DNA of 41,056 nucleotides from a virus: the UHGV virus genome UHGV-1383708. One strand, 5' to 3'. How positions within the stretch are numbered: position 1 is the first letter of the stretch; the number at the start of each line of letters is the position of its first letter. The position numbers were made by a program, and so were the translations under genes. Below, piece after piece: positions 7,476-28,216 of the stretch. The notes below the pieces were generated by a model. That model did no database searches. It saw nothing but the letters and a program-made list of their open reading frames with translations, and was not told the origin of the DNA.

Positions 7476-7519
7476 GGCCGCGAAAGCGGCCTGTGACATG
7501 TCACGCTAGTTTCGTTTTG
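7476..7519. terminator. Bidirectional intrinsic terminator between convergent units
   Basis: GGCCGC-GAAA-GCGGCC hairpin with T-rich tracts on both sides. Confidence 0.55.
7493..7504. repeat. Perfect 12-bp palindrome GTGACATGTCAC (copy 1)
   Basis: Exact; immediately beside hairpin GGCCGC-gaaa-GCGGCC. Confidence 0.8.
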
Positions 7520-7542
7520 CACGTCCCTGTGCCGCCGTTCTG

Positions 7543-8481
7543 TCAGAAGAACCCTGCCTTGTCGTTGATGTATTCCGCGTGCGTCTGGATATCACGCAGG
7601 CATTTGCTCACACCGACGATGTAGCAGAACATGGTGGTCAGCTCCGCCGCCGCGCCCGATACATCGTGCCCGTCTTCCTGTAACTGGTTCAGCAGATTCA
7701 TCAGCAGTGAGTTCTCCGTCAGGCCGAGAACACCAGACGGCGAATGAATCAGGCTACGGTAGCCGGGCTTCAGTGGATAACCATAACATTTTGTCTGTGT
7801 TTTAATTGCCTCACGAAGCGCATCTAACATCTTGACTGCCACTTCATCATTCTCTGATGCAGATCCAGCAGGGAGATACTCCCCTTCAAGCGGAACCCGA
7901 GCAACAAGAGACAACGCTTCGGCAAATTGATCTTCACCAATTTCTTTGTACGAACAGCCAAAATGAGATTTCAGTGACGACCACATGGTGATCATCGCCT
8001 TAGCCTGTTTTTCTTTTGGCAGAGACTGACCGCGACTCATGACGAGTTGTTTAATGGCTTCCTGCTGTTCAGTTGTTATTTTACCCGGCAACGCCTTTTT
8101 AGCTTTGCGTGGGTTAACCACATGGCCTTTAGTCCAGTACTCGTAGAGCACATCGTCACACTCTTCCTGATACTGGATTACCTTGTCGCGGATTTCAGGG
8201 CGGACTTTGTTAGGGCTGATGCTGTTCAACCAAGCTGCCAATTTTCGTAAAGCCATACAAATCATGGCTTGCACCCCACCGGCAGAAGGTATGGTGATTT
8301 CCACCATACCCTTCGAGAAGCGTTGAGAAATCTTCTTATGTTGAGATTTCCAGTCTAGCCCCATTCCCTCAACGATAGGTTTCATTGGGGTATACGGTTC
8401 GCCGTTGTGATTGACAACATAAAGCTCTGCGCCGTGGAATGGCACGTTGATAGTAGATACTGCTGTTGCTATACTCGTCAT
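7543..8481 (-). CDS. Antirepressor (Ant-type N-terminal region plus shared C-terminal domain)
   Basis: 312 aa; downstream of arc-like gene as in P22 immI; last 77 aa near-identical to C-terminus of gene 5599-6291. Confidence 0.7.
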   Translation of the reverse strand: MTSIATAVSTINVPFHGAELYVVNHNGEPYTPMKPIVEGMGLDWKSQHKKISQRFSKGMVEITIPSAGGVQAMICMALRKLAAWLNSISPNKVRPEIRDKVIQYQEECDDVLYEYWTKGHVVNPRKAKKALPGKITTEQQEAIKQLVMSRGQSLPKEKQAKAMITMWSSLKSHFGCSYKEIGEDQFAEALSLVARVPLEGEYLPAGSASENDEVAVKMLDALREAIKTQTKCYGYPLKPGYRSLIHSPSGVLGLTENSLLMNLLNQLQEDGHDVSGAAAELTTMFCYIVGVSKCLRDIQTHAEYINDKAGFF

Positions 8482-8553
8482 GTCGTTAATTCCTATACGT
8501 AGTTTTACGATACTGAAGCCCTGACGGTCTGGCCACCGTGGGGCTTCGCTGTT
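8482..8553 (+). ncRNA. Candidate sar-like antisense RNA covering the antirepressor translation start
   Basis: Plus-strand TTGATA-N17-TATACT promoter at 8447-8475 inside ant 5' end; hairpin GAAGCCC...GGGCTTC plus T-tract at 8515-8556. Confidence 0.4.
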
Positions 8554-8721
8554 TTATGCCACGCTATTCTTCTCACCAGTGAGTCCATACACTTTCCTCA
8601 GCTGATAGATAATCTCTGTATTGAACTTTCGGCATTCTTTTTCGCCATTTCTTTCAATAGCTAACTTCACATCGTCCGGAAAACGAACTCGTCGTTGACA
8701 CATCTCTTTTGCTTTTTGCAT
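8554..8721 (-). CDS. Arc-like ribbon-helix-helix repressor
   Basis: 55 aa; AAGGAG RBS; RRVRFPDDVKLAIERNGEKECRKFNTEIIYQL resembles P22 Arc; upstream of antirepressor. Confidence 0.7.
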   Translation of the reverse strand: MQKAKEMCQRRVRFPDDVKLAIERNGEKECRKFNTEIIYQLRKVYGLTGEKNSVA

Positions 8722-8841
8722 TTCATATCTCCTTAGCCCCACCGTGGGGCAAAATAATTGTCACACCGTGCGTCATTGATGTCAAGCACACGGTGAGGCA
8801 TACTTCAATCATTGCAAGTAACTCAATATTTGGTGAAGAAC

Positions 8842-9273
8842 ATGAGCAGAGAAGATCCACAACTAAGGATCAGACTTCCCGTCGAAGTAAAAGAAAAAAT
8901 AGAAATTTCTGCAAAAGCCAATAAGCGATCAATGAACGCTGAAATAGTACAACGTCTTGACACCAGTTTTCTGAAAGATATTCATGAAGATGACGTAATT
9001 TCTGCTTATGAAGCAAAAATCATTGCAAACAATGCACGACATGAAATATCAAATATTATTTTCAAAAGAACCTTTAATGAAATTAATAAGAAAATAACAC
9101 TTGGACATACAAGTTTTTATATAAACCTTAATGACCTTGAACTGGAATCACTTGCAGATAATGATTACCAGATCATCTTTGAAAAAACATTTAATAAGCT
9201 CAATGAACTAGGTTACATCATCTGTGAAAACTCATGGGATGCAGATGGTTTTGGAATTGAAATACCTGAATAG
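8842..9273 (+). CDS. Mnt-like ribbon-helix-helix repressor with ~100-aa C-terminal extension
   Basis: MSREDPQLRIRLPVEVKEKIEISAKANKRSMNAEIVQRL resembles P22 Mnt N-terminus; divergent from arc-like gene. Confidence 0.65.
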   Translation: MSREDPQLRIRLPVEVKEKIEISAKANKRSMNAEIVQRLDTSFLKDIHEDDVISAYEAKIIANNARHEISNIIFKRTFNEINKKITLGHTSFYINLNDLELESLADNDYQIIFEKTFNKLNELGYIICENSWDADGFGIEIPE

Positions 9274-9363
9274 GAAGAGCAAAAGGCGTGTACATATTAC
9301 ACGTCTTTAATACAATTGAAAAACGCCACATTACTGATGTATGTTACAACAAGGAGCGATATT

Positions 9364-9927
9364 TTGAAAACCATATCTATATTAAAGGTTGCATTAGGCG
9401 TCGCTATTATTTTGACTCTCTCAATATTGTTTTATTTTTACCACAAACAAACTGCTATTGCTCTTGATAGTCACGCGGCAAACTCATTTTTCTCAGAGTA
9501 CATAGTGCCGCTATCAGGAAGCGGTATAACAAATAAATATACTGACTATGACATCAAATATGGAATTGATGATGGGGAGACTATTGTATTACATGTAATC
9601 ATTAAAAACCTAATGACAGTAAATAAAAATACAGACTTCAACGATAAAAATACAATACATCACAACAACAGCAAAACATTAATTTCTTATAGTAGCAACA
9701 TCTATACGGATAAATACCTAAAATACATATCAGAAGATACAATAAAAGAAACCCGCGAAAAGTTAAAAAACATATATTGTGCATCCGGCAGTTTTCACAA
9801 ATTATCGCCGCAAGAGCGTTTATTCTACGAAGCAAGAAAACAACGTAAGTCAATAATATTACATTATTATGCTGATTCAGGGGAGACACTCATATTTAAT
9901 ATTGGGGTTTCCCCTGAATCATGCTAA
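9364..9927 (+). CDS. AT-rich membrane-anchored protein (about 188 aa), sieA-like position
   Basis: AAGGAG RBS 7 nt before TTG; N-terminal TM ILKVALGVAIILTLSILFYFY; markedly low GC; downstream of Mnt-like gene; start could instead be 9316 or 9337. Confidence 0.5.
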   Translation: MKTISILKVALGVAIILTLSILFYFYHKQTAIALDSHAANSFFSEYIVPLSGSGITNKYTDYDIKYGIDDGETIVLHVIIKNLMTVNKNTDFNDKNTIHHNNSKTLISYSSNIYTDKYLKYISEDTIKETREKLKNIYCASGSFHKLSPQERLFYEARKQRKSIILHYYADSGETLIFNIGVSPESC

Positions 9928-9938
9928 AGGTGTTTAAC

Positions 9939-12900
9939 TCACCGCATCACCGGATCCACCTGGTTTATTAGTGGCGCAATCCAGAACAGGTTATTGCCGG
10001 GTATCAGGGTTCGGACATTATGCACAATACGATCACCGGCATCACCATTCAACACTCCTGCGGTCACATCAATGATGCTATCCGCAAGACCAAATGACGG
10101 TCCGAATAGAGATCCTACGAATCCACGACTGGCATACCTAGACTGTGTGCCAGTGCCAAATAAAGCCCCCAGCCCAACAGCACCACCAGTAGCCTTTTCA
10201 GCCATATTGTTATATTCCATCAATGGCCCAAGAATACCGGATCTATCTATACCCTCAAGCACCAGCTTCTCTGGTGACCAGTCAACATTTTTCCCTTTCG
10301 ATGCTTCTTTAAGCGCATAGACCAGTGAGCCAAGAGCAATCTGAAATGCAGTGCCATAATAAAATTGCGCAGTTCCTTCCTGTAACCCACCAAGTAGCGC
10401 ACGGTTGTATGAAGCCGTTGTGAATGATTTAAACTGAAATATCGTTCGCCCCATTGGAGTACTCGCCCATAAAGGTGTGTCACCAATACCGGGGGTAATG
10501 ATAGTGTTATTAACGTCTTTCAGAACCGCTGACTGGAATACTCCGGCAACGTACTGATCGTCCCATTTATCAAAGTTACCAATGTGCCATCCATCAATTA
10601 CCTCACCATGTTTCTCGAACTCACTGCGAATACGCGCAGCCATATTGTCGTTGATACCGAGTTTTGCCATGCGACGTGCAGAAAACGCACCAGACAAAAT
10701 ACCGTCTGACGTGAGCATTCCGTTCATGGATTTGTTTATGTCATTAAATCGATCCATGAGTGTCAGCTTGCCGAAGGCATCAGTAATTCGCTCCATTCCT
10801 GCTTCGACTGCTGTTGTCCTGGAAGAACTGTCAACAAGATCACCAATTGCACGAGAACGTGAATGTAGTACAGTTTCCAATCCAATCCCCATCTTCAACA
10901 TCTCTTCTTTGCTGGCCTTAAATGCCGGTGATTGGGATATCTGAGAAGCATAGCCTTTCATGGAGTTACGGAAACCATTAACCATAACCCCTCTGGCCAG
11001 ATCTGGAATAGCTGATACTGTCATTCCACCGAGTTTTGTCGTGAAGTTCACATCCCGCAGAAAAGCGCCAGCACGAACAAAAAACGAAGACGGGTCATCA
11101 GGCATACCATATGTACCAACAAGACGATCGCGTAATGCTGTTATGTCTCTGAGATCATTTGCTCTTGATTTTGAAAGTCTGGACTGTTCTTTCCGTAATT
11201 CCTTTTCGTACTTTCGCATTAATGAATCGAGTTTACCCTGAGGAACAACTTCACCATTGCTCTCATAACGTGCTTTCAGATTTGCCACACTTTCGTCATA
11301 TTTTGCCTTTATTTTTTCAGGCACTTCCCGTAACAGACTGTCATATTCGTCCTCAATTAATTGCAGACGCTCTGTCATAGTTCGTTTGCCAAATGTTCTC
11401 GTCAACTCAATTTCTGCTGCCGCTTCACGGATATGACGTTGTAGAACGTAATTCACATCACTTTCGAGATAATCCCTGATAAGACTATCAGGCACATTTA
11501 ATGTTCTTTCTTTCGTACTACCTGCGGCTTTTACAGAAAATACGCTGACAAAATCCTGTGGAACCTTAGCACCAGTAATTTTATTAATTACGATATCCGC
11601 TGCAATTTCAGCATCCTCAGGATCCAGTGTTTTATTGCCTCTCGACCACCAGTCAACCAAAATACGTCGAAATTTATCGCGTTCACTGATTATTTTTCCA
11701 ACTTTATATATACGTGGGAAATAGCTTGCCTGGCCTAATGCTTTCAGTTCTTCATCTGGCGGCAATAAACCAAGCTTTTGCATTTCAACCTTCACCCGAT
11801 TTAATACAGTTCGCATCGCCTGCGCCGTTTCCTGAACAACAGGATTAGCATGCACATCACCGCTTCGCATAGCATTCCCAACCTGCTGACGAAATGAATC
11901 AAAACTCATGTCACCACCATCAGCTTTATACTTTGCGTATGCCTGTTTATTTCCGACAACAACAGCAGCTTCTTCACGCTGCCATCCACGTGTACGGGTT
12001 TCTACAGCTACCGGTGTTTCAATCCCCCTTTCATTTCCTTTAAGGGTGAAATTATTTTCGGCTAACTCCAGCGTTGTTTTTCGCACTGTCTTGGACGGAG
12101 ACTCCATTAACCTTGTCAAAGGAGTAAGATAGCTCCCTGCTTTCCATGCAGCCTTTCCAACCACCCCACCGGAAACAGGGGTTAAATCATCCAGAGTCGC
12201 TGTATCAATTTTCATAGCACCAACACTACCACCATCAGAAAGCGAAGCGGCAGCCCTGTCAGTCGCTGATGTAATGCTCATATTATCAAGAGCATCAGCA
12301 ACCTCACGCGTGGCTGCAGCCCGGACGGATGGCGAAAGCGCAACACCAGCACTGGCAAACACGCCGCTCATCATCGCACCCGCTGCAATGTGAGCGGCAC
12401 TTTCACCCCATGAGCGTGTTATTTGCTGATTATTCAGCACAACCTCGCTTAATGCTGTACCGGCTGCACCAATCGCAATCTGTGAGCCAATACGCGCCAG
12501 TGCCCCTCCTTGAGCACCGGGGATAAACATTGACGCAACAGTAACCGGATCCATTCCCGCAGCAATACTGGCAAGGGTTCCAACTACGCCAGCATCAGAC
12601 AATAAACGTCTGTCTTCATTTTCATCATCTATCTGCTGCTTAATCCACGCCGTTTCCTCTGGCGATCGGGAATCTGCAAATTTCGCCCCCCAGTATTCAT
12701 AACCGTGCAACTCATTTTTATCAGCATATGGGTTATAACCTTCGACCGGTTCAAACTGTCTGGCTGGTCGGAAAAAACCAGCCAGAATATTGTTCTGTCG
12801 CATTGCAGCCCCCCATACGGAAGGCTCCGGTGGCAATGGCTCAGGATTAGCCCCTTCCGGAAGGGCAACATCAAACCCAGTTTGTTCCGGCAAAACATTA

Positions 12901-12953
12901 CCTGACGGGATCAGTCCGTTATTAAGATCTTCAGCTTGTGCATAAACTGGCAT
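9939..12953 (-). CDS. Large internal virion/ejection protein (1004 aa)
   Basis: Last gene of structural block; start abuts upstream stop. Confidence 0.6.
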   Translation of the reverse strand: MPVYAQAEDLNNGLIPSGNVLPEQTGFDVALPEGANPEPLPPEPSVWGAAMRQNNILAGFFRPARQFEPVEGYNPYADKNELHGYEYWGAKFADSRSPEETAWIKQQIDDENEDRRLLSDAGVVGTLASIAAGMDPVTVASMFIPGAQGGALARIGSQIAIGAAGTALSEVVLNNQQITRSWGESAAHIAAGAMMSGVFASAGVALSPSVRAAATREVADALDNMSITSATDRAAASLSDGGSVGAMKIDTATLDDLTPVSGGVVGKAAWKAGSYLTPLTRLMESPSKTVRKTTLELAENNFTLKGNERGIETPVAVETRTRGWQREEAAVVVGNKQAYAKYKADGGDMSFDSFRQQVGNAMRSGDVHANPVVQETAQAMRTVLNRVKVEMQKLGLLPPDEELKALGQASYFPRIYKVGKIISERDKFRRILVDWWSRGNKTLDPEDAEIAADIVINKITGAKVPQDFVSVFSVKAAGSTKERTLNVPDSLIRDYLESDVNYVLQRHIREAAAEIELTRTFGKRTMTERLQLIEDEYDSLLREVPEKIKAKYDESVANLKARYESNGEVVPQGKLDSLMRKYEKELRKEQSRLSKSRANDLRDITALRDRLVGTYGMPDDPSSFFVRAGAFLRDVNFTTKLGGMTVSAIPDLARGVMVNGFRNSMKGYASQISQSPAFKASKEEMLKMGIGLETVLHSRSRAIGDLVDSSSRTTAVEAGMERITDAFGKLTLMDRFNDINKSMNGMLTSDGILSGAFSARRMAKLGINDNMAARIRSEFEKHGEVIDGWHIGNFDKWDDQYVAGVFQSAVLKDVNNTIITPGIGDTPLWASTPMGRTIFQFKSFTTASYNRALLGGLQEGTAQFYYGTAFQIALGSLVYALKEASKGKNVDWSPEKLVLEGIDRSGILGPLMEYNNMAEKATGGAVGLGALFGTGTQSRYASRGFVGSLFGPSFGLADSIIDVTAGVLNGDAGDRIVHNVRTLIPGNNLFWIAPLINQVDPVMR

Positions 12954-15670
12954 TATTTAGATCCCCACGAAAAGTAATCTTTAAATTTGTCCATACGTTC
13001 GTTATGCAGGCGCTGATACTGCTCATCCAGAGCGCGATGCTTGTCTTTGAAGTTTCGTATAGCCTGTCCACGCATAATTTCTTCCTGCTCGTACTGCTCC
13101 CGTTCCTGCTGCATTTTCTTATAAGGTTCCCAATCTTCTAGTGATGGTTCCCAACGCATAGGACGCCCATGTTTGTTATAAAACGGCTGGACCCGATCGA
13201 TGCCATTTTCATCCTTAGTTCTTACCATAATGGCGTAATCACCATTACGAGGTGTTAACACGTCAGGGGTTATGAATAATTCTCCATTAATACGACTCTC
13301 AGGGGTTTTTGTCTCAACTACAGGAGCATTACCTGACGTGATCCCAAGCAACGTCGGACTGGTTGTTATAATCTCTTTGCGCTCACCGTACATCAGCCGT
13401 TCTTTTTCAGCTTTCCACTGCGCCGCCTGCCAGCCTGACGGCCCATATTGATAAAGCGCCTCCGGTGCATATTTCATAAACTGCGCTTCTCCGTTAACCT
13501 CGCTGATACTCCAGGTGCGGGCTATCTGCTGGTTGGTCATTTGCTTCGCTACGTCAGCGTTACCACCAGCAACGCGGTAGTTAATGTCATACAGCGTCTG
13601 ATAGTCATTACGGAATCTAGCTGCTTCCGGCGTCTGGTCATCCGCAGACGGATCCCAACGGAACCACTGCGCCATATTGCTGACAGCAGAATTCATCGCC
13701 TTGCTGCGATTATTTTTGTACTCTTTTGAACTCTGCGTTGATGCCAATTGAGCTTTAAGAGCATCGGTCTGGTTGTACGTCAGGTTCTGCGCCTGCTCGA
13801 TAGCCGCATCAGCAGACATGCCAGAATCTGTTAGTTGCTTAACAGTCAGATAAAAACCCTGCATATCCTTCGGCATATTTCCAATAGATGCATTGTCTGT
13901 TTCATATAACCGACTAAACAAATTCGCTGCATTTTTAACCACTTCCTGATTGCTGGATCTGGATACTGCTGAAAGCTGCGTGATGACCTGCGAAGGCATG
14001 ATGCCAGTCTGAGCCACAAGCCGAACAACCCCATCATGAGTGGAGGCATCATTAATACGAAAGTTCTGCGCCATTTCTGTGTAATCAGCAGCTTTCTGCA
14101 TTGATTTGTTGCTTGGGTCTAATTTTTCACCTATTGTCAGCGCCTCATTGAATCTGCGTGAATCACGTTGCGCCTGAATTGCTTCATTTGATCGCTGAAG
14201 CAATGCAGACAATTTTCCGTAAGCATCGAGTTTTAACGCATAGTGAGGATCGTTAACCTCAGGCTTCACTTTCTGCATTTCTTCTTGCTGCTGAGAAGGA
14301 GGTAAATACTGAATTGCCTGGAATATTCTCGCGTTATCAATCGCTATATCCAGTTGATTGATTATTTTATCTGCATTTTTTCCATACCCCCTGATGATAG
14401 TCTCCTGAGCCGGTATATAATCTGGAACCTCACCGTTATATAGCTGGGCCATGGTGTTATTAATAGCTGGCTCAAGCTGTTCTAATATTAACTTCCTTTG
14501 CTTTTCTATCTGACTATTAGCAAGGTTATCTATTTGATAAATAGTCAGCGGATCCATTCCAGTTTTATTTTTTCTATATCGGGAAAGCCACCCTTGTGTT
14601 TCTGATGGAAGATTTCGGATAAATTCTTCTTCTGATATTTCACCTTTACGTGGATCACCGACTTTGGCGATCAGTTTATCCACGTTACCCATCCCCCAGT
14701 TATATGCTGCTCCGGTCAATATTTCGGAGCCGTACTTACCATACAGTTGATTTACATAGTCACTGGCGAGCATTTCATGCTGTTGTTCGTCCGTAGGGTT
14801 GTATTTAACGCCACGCTTGGCCGCCAGTTCTTTCCCTGTGCCCGGCATTAACTGGTATTTCCCCTGGGCTCTCTCTCCAGAAGATGTTATCGGTCCTTCA
14901 AGAAGACTACCATCAGGATTAAAATGTCGATCACCTGATTCAACAAGGCGTATGGCACGCATGTCCATGCCTCCAGAATCATTTTTCTGAAACAGACCAT
15001 TTAGCCATCCTTCTGGATTGGCAGCGGCATAATTCTTCGCCCGCATTTCTGTGGCACGGCGATCATCACTTTCTATTTCTTCCAGAATGCGTTCTTGTGA
15101 CCATCCCCTGGCAGCTCCATATCTGGCAATGGCTACCATTCTGGAATTTCTGGCTAAAGTGGCAGTTTGCGGGTCATTCCAGGCATCCGCTTCATTTTGT
15201 ATCCATAATTTTCTCGTTGCCTGATATTGCTCATCTTCATAGGCATTTGTCTGCCCTATCTCATGTCTGAGAACTCCAGTACTGAACTGAATTTTCTGTG
15301 TTCTGGCTTGTTGCAAAAACATATTTCTTGCTGCTTCATCAGTCAATGAAGCAGCTATTTCTTCCACATCCTGATCAAATCCAGATATGTACTCTTGCCC
15401 CTTACCAATCGCATTTTTGCCTTGTTGTGCATAAAAACCGGTTTGAGGGTTATAAAGACGTTCATTGCTGCGCTGATTAAGCTGAAGGATGGCATCCTGA
15501 GACAATGCAACATTCGCTTTCTGCCTGGCTTCACCATATGCCACCGCATACTGATCTGCGACATTCGCCAGCACCTGACCTGCTTGAGGAACATCGAAGG
15601 TCTGAAAACCACCGGTTTGCACACCACGACTTTGCACCTGGCGTCCGGATACTGTTGGTACGACTGGCAT
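12953..15670 (-). CDS. Internal virion/ejection protein with lytic transglycosylase (SLT) domain
   Basis: 905 aa from ATG 15670; motif ERAQGKYQLMPGTGKELAAKRGV ... AAYNWGMGNV typical of SLT domains. Confidence 0.75.
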   Translation of the reverse strand: MPVVPTVSGRQVQSRGVQTGGFQTFDVPQAGQVLANVADQYAVAYGEARQKANVALSQDAILQLNQRSNERLYNPQTGFYAQQGKNAIGKGQEYISGFDQDVEEIAASLTDEAARNMFLQQARTQKIQFSTGVLRHEIGQTNAYEDEQYQATRKLWIQNEADAWNDPQTATLARNSRMVAIARYGAARGWSQERILEEIESDDRRATEMRAKNYAAANPEGWLNGLFQKNDSGGMDMRAIRLVESGDRHFNPDGSLLEGPITSSGERAQGKYQLMPGTGKELAAKRGVKYNPTDEQQHEMLASDYVNQLYGKYGSEILTGAAYNWGMGNVDKLIAKVGDPRKGEISEEEFIRNLPSETQGWLSRYRKNKTGMDPLTIYQIDNLANSQIEKQRKLILEQLEPAINNTMAQLYNGEVPDYIPAQETIIRGYGKNADKIINQLDIAIDNARIFQAIQYLPPSQQQEEMQKVKPEVNDPHYALKLDAYGKLSALLQRSNEAIQAQRDSRRFNEALTIGEKLDPSNKSMQKAADYTEMAQNFRINDASTHDGVVRLVAQTGIMPSQVITQLSAVSRSSNQEVVKNAANLFSRLYETDNASIGNMPKDMQGFYLTVKQLTDSGMSADAAIEQAQNLTYNQTDALKAQLASTQSSKEYKNNRSKAMNSAVSNMAQWFRWDPSADDQTPEAARFRNDYQTLYDINYRVAGGNADVAKQMTNQQIARTWSISEVNGEAQFMKYAPEALYQYGPSGWQAAQWKAEKERLMYGERKEIITTSPTLLGITSGNAPVVETKTPESRINGELFITPDVLTPRNGDYAIMVRTKDENGIDRVQPFYNKHGRPMRWEPSLEDWEPYKKMQQEREQYEQEEIMRGQAIRNFKDKHRALDEQYQRLHNERMDKFKDYFSWGSK

Positions 15671-19150: not shown

Positions 19151-19755
19151 CAGGACAACCTCGCAATGGTAAACTCGTCAACCGGTGGCAGTGGTTCCTG
19201 TGATTCATTCTGGCTATGCGAGCCAGCACTAAGAATCACGCGATTGTACATATTGAGGGCAAACGTACCGAGGTCTGCATTCCCAGTCAGCGCCATGTTA
19301 ATAGCTGCCGCAAGACGCCAGGCCAACGCCTCCATAAAAATGGCATCAAACATGTTCACATCTGTAACGCGAGATACATACTTGAGCCATGCCTGCGGCT
19401 GGTCTGTGTAGATCAACTTTCCTGTTCCGTTGGTGTCTGCACCAACTTCGTACTGAACGCGCATTGCTGCTGTTGGATTGCGTACACCAGGAAGCATAAT
19501 TTCAGTAATGCGCAGACAATCGGACGGGTACTGGTACGCATATTCCCAGTCAGGCGGTGGATTGTTCGTATCTGCAAGCGCCACGCGTTTGGTAGCAAAG
19601 TTCCAGTCAAAATCAGAAAGCACAGCATCACGGCAGGCCTCAAAGTGCAGCGAACATTCCCCCGCTTCCTTGCTGGCTTCCGTCAGGCTGTTAATGCTGC
19701 GGCTATTGCCAATATTGGACAGCGCACGATTGCAGATCTCTACTACAGAGGCCAT
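19150..19755 (-). CDS. Virion structural protein (201 aa), possible head-tail adaptor
   Basis: Start/stop abut neighbours. Confidence 0.5.
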   Translation of the reverse strand: MASVVEICNRALSNIGNSRSINSLTEASKEAGECSLHFEACRDAVLSDFDWNFATKRVALADTNNPPPDWEYAYQYPSDCLRITEIMLPGVRNPTAAMRVQYEVGADTNGTGKLIYTDQPQAWLKYVSRVTDVNMFDAIFMEALAWRLAAAINMALTGNADLGTFALNMYNRVILSAGSHSQNESQEPLPPVDEFTIARLS

Positions 19756-21956: not shown

Positions 21957-21964
21957 TTCCTCTC

Positions 21965-22666: not shown

Positions 22667-22959
22667 TCCTGTTCACTGGCCTCTTTGGCCATCTTCAAAT
22701 ACTGTTCAGGGCAATGCGCCATAACGCGCTGAAACAGTTCCAGCGCCAGATTGCGTTGCCCCTCATTAAATGCCATTGCCATAGCGTCCATCGGTGAGAT
22801 AGCGGAAAACACACGGCCTTTCTCCAGCACCGACCAGACAACGCGACGCCCCTGTTCACTGCTCATGACAAAGCGAATGTCATCAATTTCACGCTGCGCC
22901 ATGTCACGTTGCTTACGGGCGTTTTCTTCTTTCAGTTGATCGTCTTCGTAATCTGTCAT
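22663..22959 (-). CDS. Hypothetical head-morphogenesis protein (98 aa)
   Basis: Start overlaps portal stop. Confidence 0.45.
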   Translation of the reverse strand: MTDYEDDQLKEENARKQRDMAQREIDDIRFVMSSEQGRRVVWSVLEKGRVFSAISPMDAMAMAFNEGQRNLALELFQRVMAHCPEQYLKMAKEASEQE

Positions 22960-24635
22960 TGTGATTGCCCACCCTGACCACTAACTGCATTCGCCATAGC
23001 TGACAAAACACTCGGATCCGAAGTTTTAGCTTCGCTTAGCGTCTTGGCACCCTGTGCCGCCGCCATTCCCATCGCCATCATTTGTTGCTGCTGTTGCTGC
23101 TGTGCCCGTTGCTGGCGAGCCTGCTCAACCTGTTCCTGCGGAACAATGACGGTTGGAGACACTCCGGACATATCAGCGAATGCATCGATCGCCTGATCAA
23201 CATTGAGTTTGTCGAGAGCTTCTGGTTTCGCTTGCGCAAGTTGACCAATGAAGTTGACCGTAGACGCCAGACTGGACAGGCCGATAGACTTCTGCGCCTG
23301 AGCCATGACGGAAATGTATTCGACCTTCAGGGGCATACCTTCCATCGCGTCAGGCGGTGGCGGCAGCATGTTTTTACGCACCATCATCGAGAAAGAGCGG
23401 TCAATGAGAGGATTAAGACATTCGTCGTTCAGACGCTCCAGAACCGGCCCCAACATCAGAAGTTTTTCTTCTTTCATTTCGATCACCGCTTCAACAGGCA
23501 TCGAGCGGGTATTGATGTTCTGCAACATCATGAACAGATCGACAAAGTAGGCGCTGTTAATGATTTGACGGGTGTCCTGAATGTCTGCCACCAAATCTGC
23601 TGTACTGGGGTTAACCAGATAAGCAGGCCTGAAACCATCCTGACCAGTAATCTGATCGATATACGTGATGTCGCCAGGAAGAAGGGAGGCACGCTGATTC
23701 TTGAGGGAAGTCGGAGCAACCATCGGCGGATTGGTGGCTTTATCAATCAACTCCGACTTGCGCTTCTGGAGAAGCTGCAATGCCTTAACAGGTCCAAGCG
23801 CCAGCATACCCGGGCATGATGATCCATAAACATCTTCACCGTTAACTTCCCAGCGCGGAGCCATAATTGGAAACTCATCGAATCCGGACTCACGCAACAA
23901 CTTGTCGTTATCGCCACCAACCTCGTAATAAACCGATTTGAATGGCTTGTTCTTGCTATCCAGCTTCGATGTATCGCGGTCAATGTTCGGGTAAACCGAA
24001 TGCATCACTTCAATCCACTTCTCGTAGGTGCCGCTTTCCCACATGCTTTTTACGGATTCGCTGACGTTATTTAGCCCGAACTCCTGAACAAGCTGACGAA
24101 CAGTCATAGAGAACTTGCGAAAACAGGTGTCCACACTGCCACGAGGTGAGTTAGCCAGGTAGTAACTGCCTATCGGGAATGGCATTGTGCGAATGATGTC
24201 CTCGTCATCCTCCAGCACTGCCATTGCACCAGTGCTGTATGTGCCGAGGCTTCCGTATAACTGCGGCAGCGACTGATAGAGATTCGACTTATTGAACATA
24301 TCGTTCATACGGTTCTGCACCGCCTCAAGCCACAACTTAACAGGGCCATAATCCATCATTTCAGGATCTGGCGTAGCCAGGCGAAACCACGGACGCGCGG
24401 GGCTTGTGATGCCTGACATCATGCCGCTGGCGAGAGTGCGCGCCGCCATAGTCCCGGTCGAATCAATAATGCGTGTATTGCGTCGATCGTTACGGTTGAC
24501 CTCAGAAGTCAGAAAGCGGGAACCACGCGGGTTGATGTAATCACTCAACTCGCGCCAGTGCGGCTCGAACGACTGACGCTCGCTTTCAAGTTGTGCGAAC
24601 TGTTTGTTCAATCGCTCTTTAGTTGTTTCCGCCAT
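22956..24635 (-). CDS. Portal protein
   Basis: 559 aa; position directly after terminase large subunit; acidic glutamine-rich C-terminus. Confidence 0.8.
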   Translation of the reverse strand: MAETTKERLNKQFAQLESERQSFEPHWRELSDYINPRGSRFLTSEVNRNDRRNTRIIDSTGTMAARTLASGMMSGITSPARPWFRLATPDPEMMDYGPVKLWLEAVQNRMNDMFNKSNLYQSLPQLYGSLGTYSTGAMAVLEDDEDIIRTMPFPIGSYYLANSPRGSVDTCFRKFSMTVRQLVQEFGLNNVSESVKSMWESGTYEKWIEVMHSVYPNIDRDTSKLDSKNKPFKSVYYEVGGDNDKLLRESGFDEFPIMAPRWEVNGEDVYGSSCPGMLALGPVKALQLLQKRKSELIDKATNPPMVAPTSLKNQRASLLPGDITYIDQITGQDGFRPAYLVNPSTADLVADIQDTRQIINSAYFVDLFMMLQNINTRSMPVEAVIEMKEEKLLMLGPVLERLNDECLNPLIDRSFSMMVRKNMLPPPPDAMEGMPLKVEYISVMAQAQKSIGLSSLASTVNFIGQLAQAKPEALDKLNVDQAIDAFADMSGVSPTVIVPQEQVEQARQQRAQQQQQQQMMAMGMAAAQGAKTLSEAKTSDPSVLSAMANAVSGQGGQSQ

Positions 24636-24649
24636 TTCAATGACTCCGG

Positions 24650-24856
24650 TTACTGACCAAGCAGCGTTTTACCGCTGGTATTAGCGGTTGATGTGTCGCC
24701 CTGAGAACCGGTAAGCAGCGTAGAACTACGACCAGCAGCAGCGCGACGGCGACGAGTTTCTTCGTCGCGGGCATCAACAACGGCGGCATCCTGCTCCTGT
24801 GGTGCTGCCTGAACTTCTGGTGTTGCAGGCACTGATGGTGAGCTACCCATGCACAT
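24650..24856 (-). CDS. Hypothetical small protein (68 aa) between terminase and portal
   Basis: GGAG RBS; ends 15 nt before portal start. Confidence 0.4.
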   Translation of the reverse strand: MCMGSSPSVPATPEVQAAPQEQDAAVVDARDEETRRRRAAAGRSSTLLTGSQGDTSTANTSGKTLLGQ

Positions 24857-24946
24857 ATCAATGACTCCGTACGCAATTAAATTATTACCAATTTAACCAC
24901 ATATGATTTATTTATCGTAGATGGTTGACATTTAATGCACGAATTA

Positions 24947-24961
24947 TTACCCTTCAGGTAA
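24947..24961. promoter_or_regulatory. Operator palindrome TTACC-CTTCA-GGTAA
   Basis: Perfect palindrome 17 nt downstream of a TTGACA hexamer (24925-24930). Confidence 0.55.
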
Positions 24962-25282
24962 GTAAATAGTTCATTCCGGTTATTAACCTGACTGGCTTGT
25001 CGTTAAATTGAACAGGTGGAGTGAGCTTTTATTTTGAGCAGTACGGCGTATGGCACATGCGCCGATAGCGGTCTGGATACGTTTAAGGGGCACCCTCCCT
25101 TGCTCGGGCAAACGAACCAGGTAGCCGGAATGTGCAAGTCGAGCGGTTTTATTCCGCGCACGGGGATTCACCATCCCGGCGATTCGGTGTGACGCCTCGG
25201 AAGAGACGAGGGTGCAACGATGAGAGCATTTATGGAGCCGCGACAAAGTGTGGCGCCTTAACAGGCTAAGTGCTCTCAGCGT

Positions 25283-25359
25283 TGTGGCATTAGCTCAGTT
25301 GGACAGAGCAACCGCCTTCTAAGCGGTTGGTCGCAGGTTCGAATCCTGCATGCCACGCC
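25283..25359 (+). tRNA. tRNA-Arg (anticodon UCU), argU-like
   Basis: 77 nt; 7-bp acceptor stem GTGGCAT/ATGCCAC; anticodon stem ACCGC/GCGGT with loop CTTCTAA; T-loop TTCGAAT; encoded 3' CCA. Confidence 0.85.
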
Positions 25360-25403
25360 AGAATCACGCCTAAGGACCGTGATGCCAGAAGTTCCAGGGG
25401 CTT

Positions 25404-25446
25404 GGCGGTGATGGTTTCCCTTGAAGGACTATCACCGCCCTTTTTA
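25404..25446 (+). terminator. Intrinsic terminator downstream of tRNA-Arg
   Basis: GGCGGTGAT ... ATCACCGCC long hairpin followed by CTTTTT. Confidence 0.55.
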
Positions 25447-25522
25447 CAGCAGGACGCCATTGCGATGACTTCATGCTGTAAACCAGTACAGCCACGGAAG
25501 GCATAACTCATTGCTTCCAGTT

Positions 25523-25546
25523 CGCCCGGTTCGCCGGGCATTTTTT
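25523..25546 (+). terminator. Intrinsic terminator immediately upstream of gene 25564
   Basis: GCCCGG-ttcg-CCGGGC hairpin followed by ATTTTTTT. Confidence 0.6.
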
Positions 25547-25563
25547 TAAGGTGAGATTAGACT

Positions 25564-25935
25564 ATGAGTGACAAAGACATTGAATCTGAAATTCAGGCTA
25601 AAGGTTTAGCCGCGCCGCGCGTTACGCCAGACCATATCGAGAGCATTATTGCTCAGGAGGCATATTTCACAGCAGAAGATGGTGTCTTTGGCGTAGCCAT
25701 AAAAGCGAAACATACTGGCGGAGAGGTAAACTACCAGCCGCACGAATCACTTTCTCTGCTGACGTTCTGCGTTCTGGTGCTGCGCAACGGCTTCACCGTC
25801 ACCGGAGAGAGCGCCTGTGCAAGCCCGGAAAACTTTGATGCGGAAATTGGTCGGAAGATTGCCCGGCAGAATGCTGTAAACAAAATCTGGATGCTTGAAG
25901 GTTACTTGCTGAAGCAGAAGTTAAGCGAGCAATAA
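25564..25935 (+). CDS. Hypothetical protein (123 aa), opposite-strand insert in the late region
   Basis: AAGGTGAG RBS; flanked by terminators on both sides; opposite to surrounding late genes. Confidence 0.55.
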   Translation: MSDKDIESEIQAKGLAAPRVTPDHIESIIAQEAYFTAEDGVFGVAIKAKHTGGEVNYQPHESLSLLTFCVLVLRNGFTVTGESACASPENFDAEIGRKIARQNAVNKIWMLEGYLLKQKLSEQ

Positions 25936-25939
25936 CACC

Positions 25940-25951
25940 GTGACATGTCAC
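25940..25951. repeat. Perfect 12-bp palindrome GTGACATGTCAC (copy 2)
   Basis: Exact; 4 nt upstream of terminator hairpin. Confidence 0.8.
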
Positions 25952-25955
25952 AAAC

Positions 25956-25982
25956 AGCCAGCCGATGAGCTGGCTTTGTTTT
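25956..25982 (+). terminator. Intrinsic terminator after gene 25564-25935
   Basis: AGCCAGC-cgatga-GCTGGCT hairpin then TTGTTTT. Confidence 0.6.
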
Positions 25983-26025
25983 ATCCTCACCAGAGGATAT
26001 CTCCGTCATTATCCCCGCTAACGGA

Positions 26026-27501
26026 TTAAGCATAGGGATCGTAATCTGTAATGGCCTTGCCTTGCTGGTTCTGCTGCCCGGGAATTCGCAGACGCTTAGA
26101 CACAGGGAACGCAAACGTCAGCAGTAGCGCATCGCCTTTACCCGGCGAACGCCCAAGCCGCTCCTTGATATCTTCCTTCGGTTCGATAACGATTTTACCG
26201 TCCACTCGAACTTTGTACTCTGCCGCCGACAGGTCGTCTGCTGTTTCCTGGTCATCCAGCATCCCGCCCAGCCTCAGCCATGTCTTGCATGAGTTGAACA
26301 TCTCCCCACGCTTGTTGAGCATCTGCGGGTCAGTAGACGCGCCACCGAACGGAACAAGTTGCCATGTACGACCCCAGCCGTCACCGATTGACTTCAGACC
26401 AGTTCCGTAACCGAAGTCGATGAACACTGCGTCAGCCTGGTACTGGTCTTCAAAGTCAGCGATACGCTTCGCCATTATCAGATCGTCAGTGGTCTTGTTG
26501 CCAGTCCACAGCACCTTACTGTGCAGCCCCTGCCGCAGGTATATCACAGCGTCATCAACTCCGGAGTATGCCGGGTCAACGCCGATTATCACCGGAGCAT
26601 GTGCAACCTGCGCAGCGGTTACCACCCGTTTCATTGCCTCATCAGTAAGACCGGTAGGGATAAACTGCAATTCAGATGCATCAGGGAATATGCCGCGCAC
26701 ACGGATTTTAACGAAGTCGCTGTCTTCCCCGTAGTCATCAACCCATTTCTGCAACTGCTGTTTGTTAGTACCTTCCACCGTCCGGCTGTCAATCTGCGCA
26801 GTTTTCCAGCGGTGTTTGTATTTGCGGAAACATTCGCGAAAACGCCCGGTATTACGTGTAGGGTTTCCGAACGCCACCCAGATAATCTCAGTGTCTTCGT
26901 CCGTAAGCGCACCCTCAGCAACTTCCCACACCAGATCCGCAATGTTCGACGCTTCATCGAATACCACGATGATGCGTTTGCGCTCGTTGTGTAGTCCGGC
27001 GAATGCCTCAGTGTTGTGCTCAGACCAGGGGATTGCGTCAGCTCGCCACCGCTTGTCGTGCCCAGGATCATTGCTGTACATCGCAGTAGCGGTACAGGTA
27101 AACCAGTCTTTCGTGATAGCAAGGTTCGACCACTTGATAATTTCCGGCCAGGTCTTCGTTCGTAGCTGGTTGTCGGTGTTGGCGGTCACCACGACCTTAC
27201 AATCCTCGCAAGTGGACATGCCCCAGTTGATCAGCATTGAGATGAATGCGGATTTACCAATACCGTGACCAGAAGCGCGTGCCAGCATAAGCGGCTGATA
27301 GCGCGTCTCTGGATTCTGCAGGTGATCACGTATCTCTCGGAACGCATCAGCCTGCCACTGACGTGGGCCGGTAGCATGTGCCAGTTCAGTCCCCTCTTCC
27401 CCCCACGGGAACGCATAGAGGGCATAGCCAAGCGGATCGTGAGTGAACCCTGCAATATCCTCGATCAACTGCTCTTCAGGAGATAACGCTGTATCTGTCA
27501 C
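26026..27501 (-). CDS. Terminase large subunit
   Basis: 491 aa; ATPase region then nuclease region (VIIGVDPAYSG...); follows terS. Confidence 0.85.
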   Translation of the reverse strand: MTDTALSPEEQLIEDIAGFTHDPLGYALYAFPWGEEGTELAHATGPRQWQADAFREIRDHLQNPETRYQPLMLARASGHGIGKSAFISMLINWGMSTCEDCKVVVTANTDNQLRTKTWPEIIKWSNLAITKDWFTCTATAMYSNDPGHDKRWRADAIPWSEHNTEAFAGLHNERKRIIVVFDEASNIADLVWEVAEGALTDEDTEIIWVAFGNPTRNTGRFRECFRKYKHRWKTAQIDSRTVEGTNKQQLQKWVDDYGEDSDFVKIRVRGIFPDASELQFIPTGLTDEAMKRVVTAAQVAHAPVIIGVDPAYSGVDDAVIYLRQGLHSKVLWTGNKTTDDLIMAKRIADFEDQYQADAVFIDFGYGTGLKSIGDGWGRTWQLVPFGGASTDPQMLNKRGEMFNSCKTWLRLGGMLDDQETADDLSAAEYKVRVDGKIVIEPKEDIKERLGRSPGKGDALLLTFAFPVSKRLRIPGQQNQQGKAITDYDPYA

Positions 27502-28094
27502 TGATTACCATCCTGACGTTCTTTGAGTCGCTTCCTGGCTGCCGCTATGCGATCAGCAATTGTCACATTCACATTAACATCCAGGCGTTCTTTGAATGCA
27601 TTGACGTCGACGTGCTTACCAATCAGTTCGAGGTTCTTCACCTTGTCAGGCCATTTAATTTTTTTGAGAATTGTCTCTATCGAATCCTCGTTCATGTTCA
27701 TGATGGTCGATGACAGATCAAAGCCACTAAGCGTAGTGCGCCAGATTTTCGGCCACTCGCGGATTGGCTTAAGGCTCCCATCGTCATTGAGGATATCAAT
27801 CACGTCCATCTGGTCGATCTCCACCAGGCGCATGAGAACGTAATCGGCACTGACGCGCATTCGTTTGTTGCGCTCCTCCATCAACTCGGCAATCCGTTTT
27901 TGAATGCGTTCATCGCGCATCATGACACTGGCTTTAACTGCCGCTGTATTTGGGGAGAATCCTGCGTTAATCGCTGCCTGAGTCTGGTTTTCAGGCGTTT
28001 TGATGTATGACTGGCAATAAGCCTCCTGCATTGCGGTTAGTGGCTTAAATTGCGTTGATTTGCGTTTATAGGTTTTAGGTTCAGCAGGCATCAT
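27498..28094 (-). CDS. Terminase small subunit
   Basis: MQEAYCQSYIKTPENQTQAAINAGFSPNTAAVKASVMMRDERIQKRIAEL typical of Terminase_2-type small subunits; overlaps terL start. Confidence 0.75.
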   Translation of the reverse strand: MMPAEPKTYKRKSTQFKPLTAMQEAYCQSYIKTPENQTQAAINAGFSPNTAAVKASVMMRDERIQKRIAELMEERNKRMRVSADYVLMRLVEIDQMDVIDILNDDGSLKPIREWPKIWRTTLSGFDLSSTIMNMNEDSIETILKKIKWPDKVKNLELIGKHVDVNAFKERLDVNVNVTIADRIAAARKRLKERQDGNQ

Positions 28095-28134
28095 AACCAC
28101 CGTGGTAATAGTTACCGTTGTGGTAATAGTACCA

Positions 28135-28163
28135 TGCAAAATAAAGCCGCCATAGTTGGCGGC
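28135..28163 (-). terminator. Intrinsic terminator upstream of terminase small subunit gene
   Basis: GCCGCC-N6-GGCGGC hairpin followed by UUUAUUUU on minus strand. Confidence 0.55.
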
Positions 28164-28204
28164 AGTATTCAAAACCCATCAAATTCATCATGCATAATCT
28201 ACTC

Positions 28205-28216
28205 GTGACATGTCAC
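28205..28216. repeat. Perfect 12-bp palindrome GTGACATGTCAC (copy 3)
   Basis: Exact; overlaps stop of gene 28213-28560; ~42 nt from minus-strand terminator. Confidence 0.8.

Follow-up and report, generated by a model that had tools for sequence, protein, structure and literature searches.

Several described systems resemble parts of the arrangement reported here. MatP, the organiser of the Escherichia coli Ter macrodomain, acts through matS, GTGAC-RNY-GTCAC (PMC6907758), and a set of 500 enterobacterial prophages avoids the true 13-bp sequence (PMC3603311). The phage palindrome has the same half-sites with a 2 bp rather than 3 bp spacer, and is thus 12 rather than 13 bp long. However, no sequence homology between MatP and the candidate phage protein is detectable, and the phage system, unlike MatP/matS, is phage-encoded with one site over the stop codon of the gene. 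The omega repressor of pSM19035, Arc, Mnt, CopG and ParG are small ribbon-helix-helix (RHH) proteins, as the phage protein is predicted to be. The omega heptad (A/T)ATCAC(A/T) resembles the phage half-site TGTCAC(A), and the centres of the phage half-sites are 7 bp apart, which is also how far apart neighbouring omega dimers sit on DNA. Proteins of the omega/Arc type bind promoters upstream of the genes they repress, whereas the conserved phage site is at the 3′-end of its own gene and others are at the ends of other genes, and the conserved basic N-terminal helix and C-terminal Zn ribbon of the phage protein are foreign to these families.

LacI is another regulator with an operator at the 3′-end of its own gene. 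Abo and colleagues are said to have found in 2000 that LacI bound to an operator near the lacI 3′-end forms a roadblock, leading to truncated lacI mRNA and tmRNA tagging. Polymerase can thus be halted by a protein in this position before it has transcribed the stop codon, and by analogy the protein may limit its own synthesis and block read-through into the next unit. In lac this arrangement arises incidentally, from operators that serve the promoter of the following operon, whereas in the phages the stop-codon overlap is conserved above all else. The gene for lambda Q, which acts with the pR′ element, likewise comes last in an early operon and directly precedes the late genes. Q is a Zn-containing protein (as predicted here for the phage protein), and between its DNA site and the late genes there is a terminator. 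However, the phage protein has no Q family domain, its site is not between promoter hexamers, further sites are found at gene ends and inside genes, and N15 and AH07 encode both the protein and a Q. N15 SopB also has dispersed palindromic sites (centromere repeats IR1-IR4), some of them in regulatory regions, but its repeats, GCGACC-NN-GGTCGC at 33481, 35932, 41126 and 45563, differ from the GTGAC-(TG/CA)-GTCAC copies at 28550, 33237 and 39269 in the same genome, and SopB is of the ParB type, a different family from the RHH/Zn-ribbon protein.

The window, which is the whole 41,056-nt stretch of UHGV virus genome UHGV-1383708, is a complete phiV10/epsilon15-like (Uetakevirus) prophage. The initial annotation described three copies of a perfect palindrome, GTGACATGTCAC, and a search of the whole window confirmed exact copies at 7493-7504, 25940-25951 and 28205-28216 (sites 1, 2 and 3), against zero in 100 of 100 dinucleotide-preserving shuffles. 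Allowing two mismatches added a single site at 22896, a number covered by chance expectation. The three copies share the 14-mer CGTGACATGTCACA, on the minus strand for copy 1 and the plus strand for copies 2 and 3. The motif was generalised as GTGAC-N2-GTCAC, with AT at the centre in the window. High frequency in host DNA had been named as evidence against a dedicated phage element, and neither GTGAC-N2-GTCAC nor GTGAC-N3-GTCAC was found in the 75.8 kb of E. coli sequence that surround a near-identical prophage. Eight complete genomes that carry the gene family containing the gene at 28213-28560 include 20 exact GTGAC-N2-GTCAC sites (0.30 expected), and there are none in Pseudomonas phage Ab31, which has a related late module and an annotated Q antiterminator and lacks the gene. 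The organisms named in gp55 tblastn matches include no Pseudomonas phage. Epsilon15 and Tyrion have the motif at all three corresponding junctions, and phiV10 has two exact sites and a third with one mismatch. EC.W1-9 and the EC19 prophage retain site 3 alone, and sites 1 and 2 are therefore dispensable.

Site 3 (28205-28216) overlaps the TGA stop (28215-28213, minus strand) of a gene for a Cys-rich protein of 115 aa (28213-28560, minus strand), the proposed binding protein, and is the copy conserved throughout the whole protein family. A minus-strand terminator hairpin, GCCGCC..GGCGGC (28146-28163) followed by TTTATTTT (28145-28137), is found 41 nt downstream and closes the early-right unit. 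Between it and the likely start of terS (ATG 28094) are two tandem prophage-repressor operators, ATTACC-N5-GGTAAT with one mismatch each (28093-28127). The operator motif has 16 matches in the window (1.4 expected), and the homologous site in the epsilon15 record is annotated as a repressor binding site. The terminase unit therefore has its own repressor-controlled start region. This unit (26026-28094), made up of terS (27498-28094, minus strand; longest ORF reaching 28172; Pfam Terminase_2) and terL (26026-27501, minus strand; PHROG terminase large subunit) in agreement with the annotations of phiV10, Tyrion and EC.W1-9, is bracketed by sites 3 and 2.

Site 2 (25940-25951) is ∼75 nt beyond the end of terL in the window, and ∼30 nt after it in 7 of 7 terL-containing genome loci. 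It is located 4 nt past the stop of a plus-strand cargo ('moron') gene of the Phage_gp49_66 family (25564-25935; Pfam PF13876, N4 Gp49/Sf6 gene 66, E = 2e-35) and 4 nt before the terminator of that gene, a hairpin AGCCAGC..GCTGGCT (25956-25975, plus strand) followed by TTGTTTTAT. The T tract of this terminator is good for the cargo gene only, and not for late minus-strand transcription. Relatives carry different genes in this slot, each ending 2-5 nt ahead of site 2, and TGTGACATGTCACGG at the site is invariant in 10 of 11 species-diverse loci, with compensatory changes in the adjoining hairpin. Site 1 (7493-7504) is at the end of a minus-strand block, 38 nt after the stop of a P22-type antirepressor gene (7543-8481, minus strand; Pfam P22_AR_N, E = 6e-45; PHROG anti-repressor Ant), and abuts a unidirectional minus-strand terminator, AGGCCGC..GCGGCCT (7475-7492) followed by TGTTTTTAA (7474-7466). 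At this site phiV10 shares only a 59-bp island with the window (7449-7507, 96.6% identity), and both flanks differ. A sar RNA antisense to the start of the antirepressor gene was seen at 8483-8550. The antirepressor, opposite-strand and Cys-rich genes beside the three copies are as the initial annotation described them.

A terminator scan located hairpins with T tracts where the initial annotation had placed them (7492-7475, 25956-25975 and 28163-28146), 0, 4 and 41 nt downstream of sites 1, 2 and 3. In a stricter scan the window includes 18 terminator-like sites, and the chance that three random positions would all be ≤41 nt upstream of one of these is ∼6e-6. The proposed link between element and terminator stood for sites 1 and 2 of the epsilon15-like phages, to which a tight, conserved spacing (0-4 nt) is limited, but is not a property of the element itself. 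Most sites in N15, P2-like, P22-like and Vibrio phages have no terminator nearby, and in 22 of 80 relatives a 70-aa gene separates site 3 from the terminator by ∼260 nt; the 41-nt gap at copy 3 is a remnant left by loss of this gene. The alternative suggestion of a boundary element fits the positions, as three consecutive units transcribed in the same direction each have a site at the 3′-end, and gains from the repressor operators belonging to the units that follow, which are present after two of the three site-ended units (28093-28127 and 24946) and would restart transcription there. At sites 1 and 2 the terminator hairpin is flanked by a T tract on a single side, and a stop codon is 0-8 nt upstream of the site in nearly all contexts. 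A Pfam scan of ten ORFs of the early-right operon turned up no other regulator. Sites inside coding regions, such as those in repA of N15 and in a 150-151-aa ORF, fit a pure transcription-boundary role poorly.

The product of 28213-28560 corresponds to phiV10 p55, epsilon15 gp49 and N15 gp46 (phrog_536), and has no Pfam family. Its structure model (pLDDT 93.5) shows a predicted layout of a basic N-terminal helix, an RHH, a long helix and a Cys-rich Zn ribbon. Individual family members have faint Pfam matches to RHH_5, RepB-RCR_reg and RHH_1, and fold searches matched RHH proteins (CopG, ParD and antitoxins). The family retains the basic helix R11-K12-x-x-Q15-R16-x-R18, and the outward-facing strand residues 26, 28 and 30 vary in a manner that loosely tracks the centre of the site. 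The C-terminal half has a borderline profile match (E = 0.06) to TraR, which binds RNA polymerase, but this TraR/DksA resemblance gained no support from fold searches or Pfam.

GTGAC-N2-GTCAC is tied to this gene family in at least 7 different phage types, in samples picked by the protein and not by the motif, which argues from comparative data for a dedicated protein-binding element and for the adjacent Zn-ribbon gene as the right candidate, as had been suggested. Of 185 loci selected by the protein, 173 have the site together with the phage gene. It lies at or over the TGA stop in 77 of 80 epsilon15-like loci (as an exact copy), in all 49 N15-like loci and in 47 of 56 P2-like loci, with 4 further P2-like sites within 30 nt. 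At species level, site 3 is exact in 7 of 12 genome loci and altered only at the centre in 3 more. Overlap with the stop codon is also found in Pantoea phage AH07 and a P22-like locus (L142), and a site at or over the stop in Yersinia phage YenM_56.17. In Vibrio phage K308 and two further loci (L137 and L128) the site is 138-226 nt downstream of the gene. More copies are present in lambda-like, P22-like and Vibrio phages. In AH07 and N15, the gene occupies other operon positions, and each of these phages has its own Q-like antiterminator besides it.

The half-sites are invariant across proteins that are 31-61% identical, while the central dinucleotide is clade-specific (AT, TG or GC) and the flanks vary freely. 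One-mismatch variants are in no case compensatory. Folded as RNA, the motif reaches only -1.2 to -2.7 kcal/mol, and shuffles do equally well. Because the half-sites are fixed, the centre is clade-specific and RNA folding is weak, the sequence comparisons indicate that the palindrome is a protein-binding DNA site rather than the RNA element that had also been considered.

The palindrome is most likely the cognate site of the predicted RHH/Zn-ribbon protein, a pairing that co-occurrence suggests, and we hold with moderate confidence, slightly above even, that it acts as such at the ends of transcription units. Gene and site would form a portable pair, with one site on the gene's own TGA stop and one or two elsewhere in the genome. 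The protein would be made after induction from the distal end of the early-right operon and would occupy its sites in dimeric form or as a dimer of dimers. From these features we infer that it binds physically and that, where units end, it either holds up RNA polymerase or controls its passage; a roadblock or insulator working in both directions is the most likely form. Over its own stop codon it would keep transcription from running on into the genes that follow, and transcripts lacking a stop codon would limit synthesis of the protein. Where units converge at sites 1 and 2, it would turn one-way intrinsic terminators into two-way ones. A roadblock at site 2 would also halt terL transcripts short of the portal genes, and would be tolerable only if a promoter is in fact present in the operator-bearing region at 24946. 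Also counting against this reading are the loss of sites 1 and 2 in some relatives, the sites inside genes, and the other operon positions of the gene in AH07 and N15 beside a Q-like antiterminator.

The position of the gene just upstream of the terminase genes, like that of the Ab31 Q gene, argues equally for control of read-through, and the protein may act in antitermination of the terminase operon. The protein would then be a DNA-loaded, lambda Q-like antiterminator that binds the palindrome and engages passing or pausing polymerase, so that terminators are read through and early-right transcription continues into terS/terL and the late region. We regard this as unlikely, though as the strongest competitor. 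The gene is the last early gene, with a terminator after site 3. The window's right operon has no Q-like gene among its ten Pfam-scanned ORFs. The Q gene of Ab31, a phage with a homologous late module, is upstream of the lysis and terminase genes. In K308, a promoter-like TTGAAA-17-TATGTT downstream of the site at 33227 is followed by a strong hairpin whose T run extends to the holin ATG (both read by eye), and in L137 a terminator 23 nt after the site precedes the holin gene. The borderline TraR match would also suit a polymerase-directed role, though its lack of fold-search and Pfam support counts against it. However, no recognisable promoter surrounds the site, the distance to the terminator ranges from 19 to ∼260 nt, and the terminator at site 2 faces the wrong way for late transcription. 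N15 and AH07 possess a separate Q, the late clusters each have their own repressor operators, and EC.W1-9 lacks sites 1 and 2.

A pair of the MatP/matS or plasmid centromere type, in which bridging of the sites serves to fold, place or tag the phage DNA and transcription is not directly affected, is less probable again. A site directly downstream of the gene for its binding protein is the classical layout of parB-parS and sopB-sopC, and is shared by the phage pair. The half-sites are identical to those of matS with a spacer one base shorter, the sites are few per genome and dispersed, some within genes, the gene-site cassette shifts among operon contexts, and the 13-bp matS is avoided in prophages (PMC3603311). 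However, MatP homology was undetected by hhalign (probability 0.3%), and the four-helix bundle and coiled coil of MatP are missing from the protein. Integrating phages such as this prophage need no partition system and carry no ParA, and the strict overlap with the stop codon is left unexplained.

It is also improbable, and more so, that the palindrome is mainly a recombination linker, with cargo genes swapped at fixed slots together with a 3′ tag of site and terminator, as in integron cassettes. Homology breakpoints between relatives are within ∼3 nt of the site at all three positions, at least 7-8 unrelated genes (more than 8 in IMG/VR loci at site 1) are joined to the same site and terminator at sites 1 and 2, and the upstream genes there end 1-8 nt before the site. 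At least 8 inserts begin right after site 3, including LexA-box cargo genes, the 70-aa gene and xis-int, and the phage encodes RecT and an exonuclease. However, 12-14 bp is very short for homologous exchange, and breakpoints are expected beside any indispensable short element. Invariant half-sites with clade-specific centres, linkage to one protein family and intragenic sites are not accounted for.

It is very improbable that a factor recognises an RNA hairpin to bring about antitermination or processing or to control translation of the next gene. Many sites are 1-10 nt upstream of the Shine-Dalgarno sequence of the next gene, and the window's three copies are all transcribed just ahead of terminators, but the stem has only 4 bp (-1.2 kcal/mol, matched by shuffles), and in distant phages it keeps the same letters, compensatory changes are absent, and it is the 'loop' that varies. 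There is no Rfam match at the site positions, and the predicted fold of the candidate partner is one that binds double-stranded DNA. That MatP or another host protein binds the sites, with the phage gene nearby by accident, has almost nothing to recommend it beyond the shared matS half-sites and the hosts of the gene-carrying phages found (named in tblastn matches), all presumably within the MatP-bearing clade, since the spacing is one base under that of every matS, the 12-mer is absent from 75.8 kb of host sequence, and the site goes with the phage gene, its centre changing with the protein clade.

The reading that the palindrome is the cognate site of the RHH/Zn-ribbon protein is thus preferred. 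On the sequence comparisons, many phages that infect enteric bacteria or vibrios and are unrelated to one another share the protein-site pair, and in most cases one site overlaps the stop codon of the gene. This recurrence suggests an undescribed means of marking the ends of phage transcription units, for which the candidate protein is small and hitherto unstudied.

The perfect 12-bp palindrome GTGACATGTCAC occurs exactly at 7493-7504 (site 1), 25940-25951 (site 2) and 28205-28216 (site 3), as the initial annotation had claimed, and is found in none of 100 shuffles. A two-mismatch search of the window added only one site, which is within chance expectation, and a 14-mer, CGTGACATGTCACA, is common to all three copies. 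The window is a complete phiV10/epsilon15-like (Uetakevirus) prophage with the late operon on the minus strand, and near-identical prophages adjoin guaA in E. coli (PMC9782041). Epsilon15 and Enterobacter phage Tyrion each carry three exact copies at homologous places. PhiV10 carries two exact copies as well as GTGACATGTTAC, which spans the ends of its record; that break within the motif simply reflects linearisation at the p55 end. Along the direction of late transcription, the last gene of the early-right operon encodes a 115-aa protein (28213-28560, minus strand), and its TGA stop lies within site 3; a terminator, two repressor operators, terS and terL follow. A hairpin and site 2 beside a reversed cargo gene come next, and then the portal-to-tail genes, with site 1 and its terminator last. 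The palindromes appear to mark the 3′ ends of three successive units of this layout.

The proposed pairing of each copy with an intrinsic terminator was also borne out. The three copies are 0, 4 and 41 nt from terminator-like elements on the strand of the nearest upstream gene, each of them a G+C-rich hairpin with a T tract: 7492..7475 (minus strand) beside site 1, 25956..25975 (plus strand) beside site 2 and 28163..28146 (minus strand) after site 3. A stricter scan found only 18 terminator-like sites in the whole window, and the adjacency to the palindromes is therefore not due to chance. Pairing in the hairpin beside site 2 is kept through compensatory changes across 11 aligned loci, with TGTGACATGTCACGG unchanged in 10 of them and the adjoining hairpin varying by compensatory substitution. 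At sites 1 and 2 of the epsilon15-like phages, the terminators are conserved 0-4 nt away and are unidirectional. However, the terminator link is not intrinsic to the palindrome element, as a nearby terminator is missing from most sites in distant phages and the spacing between site and terminator ranges from 19 to ∼260 nt among relatives. One simple explanation for the adjacency is that, at a convergent gene junction, the sole free DNA is the ∼12-15 nt between stop codon and hairpin, a clearance from the ribosome that a terminator requires in any case (PMC4824070).

The 41 nt that separate site 3 from its terminator (28164-28204, ATGATGAATTTGATGGGTTTTGA) are a remnant of a 70-aa gene (MPKIRYDLEDMRD...), which is intact in 22 of 80 relatives, where it starts 8 nt past site 3 (for example, locus L007, 730-1060) and displaces the same terminator to ∼260 nt from the site. 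In other relatives, site 3 is directly followed by xis-int or by cargo genes with a LexA box. Loci L005, L022, L114, L124 and L125 are of the latter kind, with small cargo genes inserted ahead of terS, each having a promoter of its own and a perfect LexA box (CTGT-N8-ACAG). Two close relatives, EC.W1-9 and the E. coli EC19 prophage, retain only site 3, the cargo slots of sites 1 and 2 having been replaced; in EC19 the gene for the 115-aa protein, a putative ribbon-helix-helix (RHH)/Zn-ribbon protein, is annotated as frameshifted. One further relative (among loci L150-L229) carries a deletion that fuses ...GGCTGGCATGAA to TACTGCCGCC, with loss of the gene end, site 3 and the spacer, apparently via TGAA microhomology.

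A scan of IMG/VR with the 14-mer, a motif-selected sample, revealed three recurrent contexts, in each of which the motif is exactly at the border between conserved and variable sequence. In the first, the motif comes after the stop of a gene homologous to that for the 115-aa protein and is followed by any of at least 8 different inserts; in the second, beyond terL, it separates a terminator from a preceding cargo gene, of which at least 7 different ones were seen; in the third, at least 8 different last genes precede it and a GGCCGC hairpin follows. The 14-mer was also seen within coding regions, at the start of Q-like genes (MRDMSQ), in a 150-151-aa ORF, and at the SVTCHSC motif of a gene family taken as Q-like by its resemblance to the AH07 antiterminator; these matches were left out of the evidence because they were ascertained by the motif itself. 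Later samples were chosen by protein. The exact 12-mer is at the stop codon in 7 of 12 species-representative genomes, and a further 3 depart from it at the central dinucleotide alone (AG, AC and CT). Site 2 is ∼30 nt past terL in all seven loci that contain terL, and a site is present at the gene end in 77 of the 80 IMG/VR relatives.

Homologues that are 31-61% identical are encoded by quite different phages, and GTGAC-N2-GTCAC is present in each, against ∼0.01-0.04 copies expected. Two sites occur in a Vibrio-type phage (L137), where one lies 23 nt ahead of terS; Vibrio phage K308 has three, and a lambda-like phage (L140/L141) has two in tandem. Sites are also present in a P22-like (L142) and a P2-like (L143) phage and in Yersinia phage YenM_56.17, and in Pantoea phage AH07 the homologue gene is located in the left operon, adjoining xis. 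In N15, gene 46 encodes the homologue, and three GTGAC-(TG/CA)-GTCAC sites occur at 28550, 33237 and 39269, with no feature annotated at these positions in the N15 record; one is upstream of the antirepressor operon leader, one within repA and one on the gene 46 stop codon. These are not the SopB centromere repeats, which differ in sequence and position (IR1-4 at 33481, 35932, 41126 and 45563). The site overlaps the gene's own TGA stop in 49/49 N15-like and 47/56 P2-like loci. Eight complete genomes carrying the gene contain 20 exact sites (0.30 expected), whereas two controls contain none: 75.8 kb of host DNA, checked for the frequency of the motif, and Pseudomonas phage Ab31, no Pseudomonas phage being among the organisms named for gp55 tblastn matches. 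In the P2-like loci L282-L331, an extra half-site, GTGTGACG, is conserved 21-23 nt after the palindrome, about two helical turns, which suggests a composite operator in this clade.

The palindrome had been described as either a protein-binding or an RNA element, and only the former is consistent with its pattern of variation. The arms are invariant across distant phages and single-arm variants are uncompensated, while the central dinucleotide is fixed per clade (AT in epsilon15-like, TG in N15-like and GC in P2-like phages) and the flanks drift. The predicted RNA fold is weak (-1.2 to -2.7 kcal/mol, z-score near 0) and no better than shuffles. Together, these features are the signature of a two-fold symmetric protein-DNA site. 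No Rfam family was found at the palindrome positions, and an RNA hairpin recruitment site such as nut boxB, put or a coat-protein operator was rejected on the weak fold and the lack of compensatory changes.

A Pfam search of the 115-aa protein gave no match, and among 56 family members the only hits to relevant families (2 RHH_5, 2 RepB-RCR_reg and 1 RHH_1) were all below Pfam cut-offs. PHROG 536 is labelled 'transcriptional regulator'. The family includes at least 728 clusters at 90% identity and 147 at 50% identity, and its members are annotated as hypothetical almost everywhere, although they occur in the model phages epsilon15, phiV10 and N15. The alignment comprises a conserved basic helix (R11, K12, Q15, R16 and R18), a strand, two helices and a Cys-rich ribbon in which C82 and C85 are invariant, and the AlphaFold2 model has a pLDDT of 93.5. 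The invariant half-sites are matched by the conserved arginines, and the variable centre by strand residues 26, 28 and 30, which face outward and vary. In a small sample, these strand residues loosely follow the centre, with E-x-R-x-K/R accompanying GC or AC and K-x-E-x-V accompanying AT. Identity of this Cys-rich protein as an HNH or DUF1364-type nuclease was unsupported by Pfam, PDB and fold searches, and likeness to TraR/DksA, the C4 zinc-finger binders of RNA polymerase, is limited to a single borderline profile match.

Several other identities for the palindrome were dismissed. A cos/pac site or physical genome end, and with it a packaging role, is disfavoured by the presence of three copies and by the distance of the N15 and AH07 sites from the terminase genes. 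CRP-type and LexA-type sites do not agree with it in spacing or half-sites. It is not of the parB-parS type, as this prophage integrates, encodes an integrase and has no ParA; ParA-like genes are present in only some carriers (K308, L140 and N15). Nor is it the prophage-repressor operator. That motif is ATTACC-N5-GGTAAT, which is annotated as the repressor operator in the epsilon15 record and has 16 matches elsewhere in the window at ≤2 mismatches (1.4 expected), including those at 28093-28127, 24946-24962, 4935-4951, 32604-32682, 34997-35013 and 35709-35787. Operator motifs lie directly ahead of terS, the portal cluster and the tailspike gene, and the late region therefore looks like several repressor-controlled units, so that each 'late' cluster may be under direct repressor control.

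Other features of the window were noted in passing. The longest terS ORF (27498-28172, minus strand) begins at a TTG at 28172, as in the phiV10 annotation, and would take in both operators as well as the terminator hairpin; a likelier start is the ATG at 28094, which agrees with the 594-nt terS annotated in EC.W1-9 and Tyrion. Rfam isrK and C4 antisense RNAs (5368-5444 and 5463-5550, plus strand) precede a Bro-type antirepressor gene (5554-6291), and a sar RNA (8483-8550, plus strand) is antisense to the start of a P22-type antirepressor gene (7543-8481), indicating two differently controlled antirepressor modules in one prophage. A tRNA-Arg (anticodon tct; 25284-25360, plus strand) in the late region overlaps an opposite-strand mechanical ORF (25290-25541).

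That the palindrome is a candidate site for the 115-aa protein is the well-supported part of this analysis, whereas its mechanism is something we infer. What is conserved best is the fusion of a site to the stop codon of the regulator gene, usually with the next gene directly after. Protein bound there would stall RNA polymerase a few codons ahead of the stop, shutting off what lies downstream (in N15, gene 47; in AH07-like phages, xis-int; and here, the 70-aa gene along with read-through toward terS), and would limit its own synthesis via transcripts without a stop codon. LacI, at an operator near the end of lacI, is described as limiting its own synthesis through such transcripts, and the proposed stop-codon site may be analogous. 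At sites 1 and 2, a symmetric roadblock next to one-way terminators would insulate convergent units in both directions.

We rank this roadblock above Q-like antitermination by the 115-aa protein. Antitermination would suit a gene directly upstream of the terminase genes in a right operon where no other regulator was found among the ten ORFs scanned against Pfam, and in Pseudomonas phage Ab31, which has a related late module, the annotated Q antiterminator gene precedes the genes for lysis and terminase. Site 3 is followed by a terminator, and only a weak promoter-like match overlaps the site (GTGACA-18-CATGAT, 9/12). However, the 115-aa protein has no Pfam match to the Q family, no Q protein is among its PDB structural matches, and the spacing between site and terminator is inconstant.

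A MatP-like, DNA-organising role is ranked below both. The host matS is GTGAC-RNY-GTCAC (PMC6907758), and the phage site has the same half-sites but a spacer one base shorter (2 bp at all three sites). No 13-bp matS-type sequence was found in the window, phiV10, epsilon15 or Tyrion, and 500 enterobacterial prophages reportedly contain no true matS sites (PMC3603311). No homology of the 115-aa protein to MatP was found (BLASTP E = 13; profile-profile probability 0.3%), and its model, unlike MatP, has one N-terminal helix and a Zn ribbon. Vibrio phage K308 carries, besides its three 12-bp sites, a perfect 13-bp matS-type GTGACACCGTCAC at 19491-19503, over the TGA stop of a small membrane-protein gene. 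The resemblance to matS is a lead only: the two systems may have a common ancestor or may recognise DNA by similar chemistry, and the one-base offset may keep the phage pair from interfering with the host system. Identical half-sites, together with the reported avoidance of matS in prophages, raise the question of cross-talk or common origin with the system that organises Ter.

A broader and rather doubtful reading is that gene and site form a portable two-part system, a 'mini-MatP' (basic helix, RHH and Zn ribbon) with a matS-like 12-bp site on its own stop codon, spread over at least seven phage architectures in Enterobacterales, Vibrionales and Aeromonas and acting by a mechanism that would be without phage precedent. 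It might serve as a 3′-end operator that gates whole downstream modules and limits itself through stop-less transcripts. Alternatively, it might bridge or mark DNA, with ancestry or recognition chemistry shared with the Ter organiser and a spacing offset that avoids cross-talk.

A literature search with the exact 12-mer found it in no searchable paper, and no description of a portable gene-site system was found in searchable sources. RHH regulators with palindromic operators are already known; what appears new here and worth testing is the Zn-ribbon fusion, an operator placed over a stop codon, portability from operon to operon and half-sites that resemble those of matS. A family without a Pfam entry paired with a precise 12-bp site is a readily testable candidate regulator-operator system, and its clade-specific centres make it a compact, orthogonal candidate protein-DNA pair for use in synthetic biology. 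Epsilon15-like phages have no Q or N type regulator, and the pair could explain how their early, packaging and structural units are separated or coupled.
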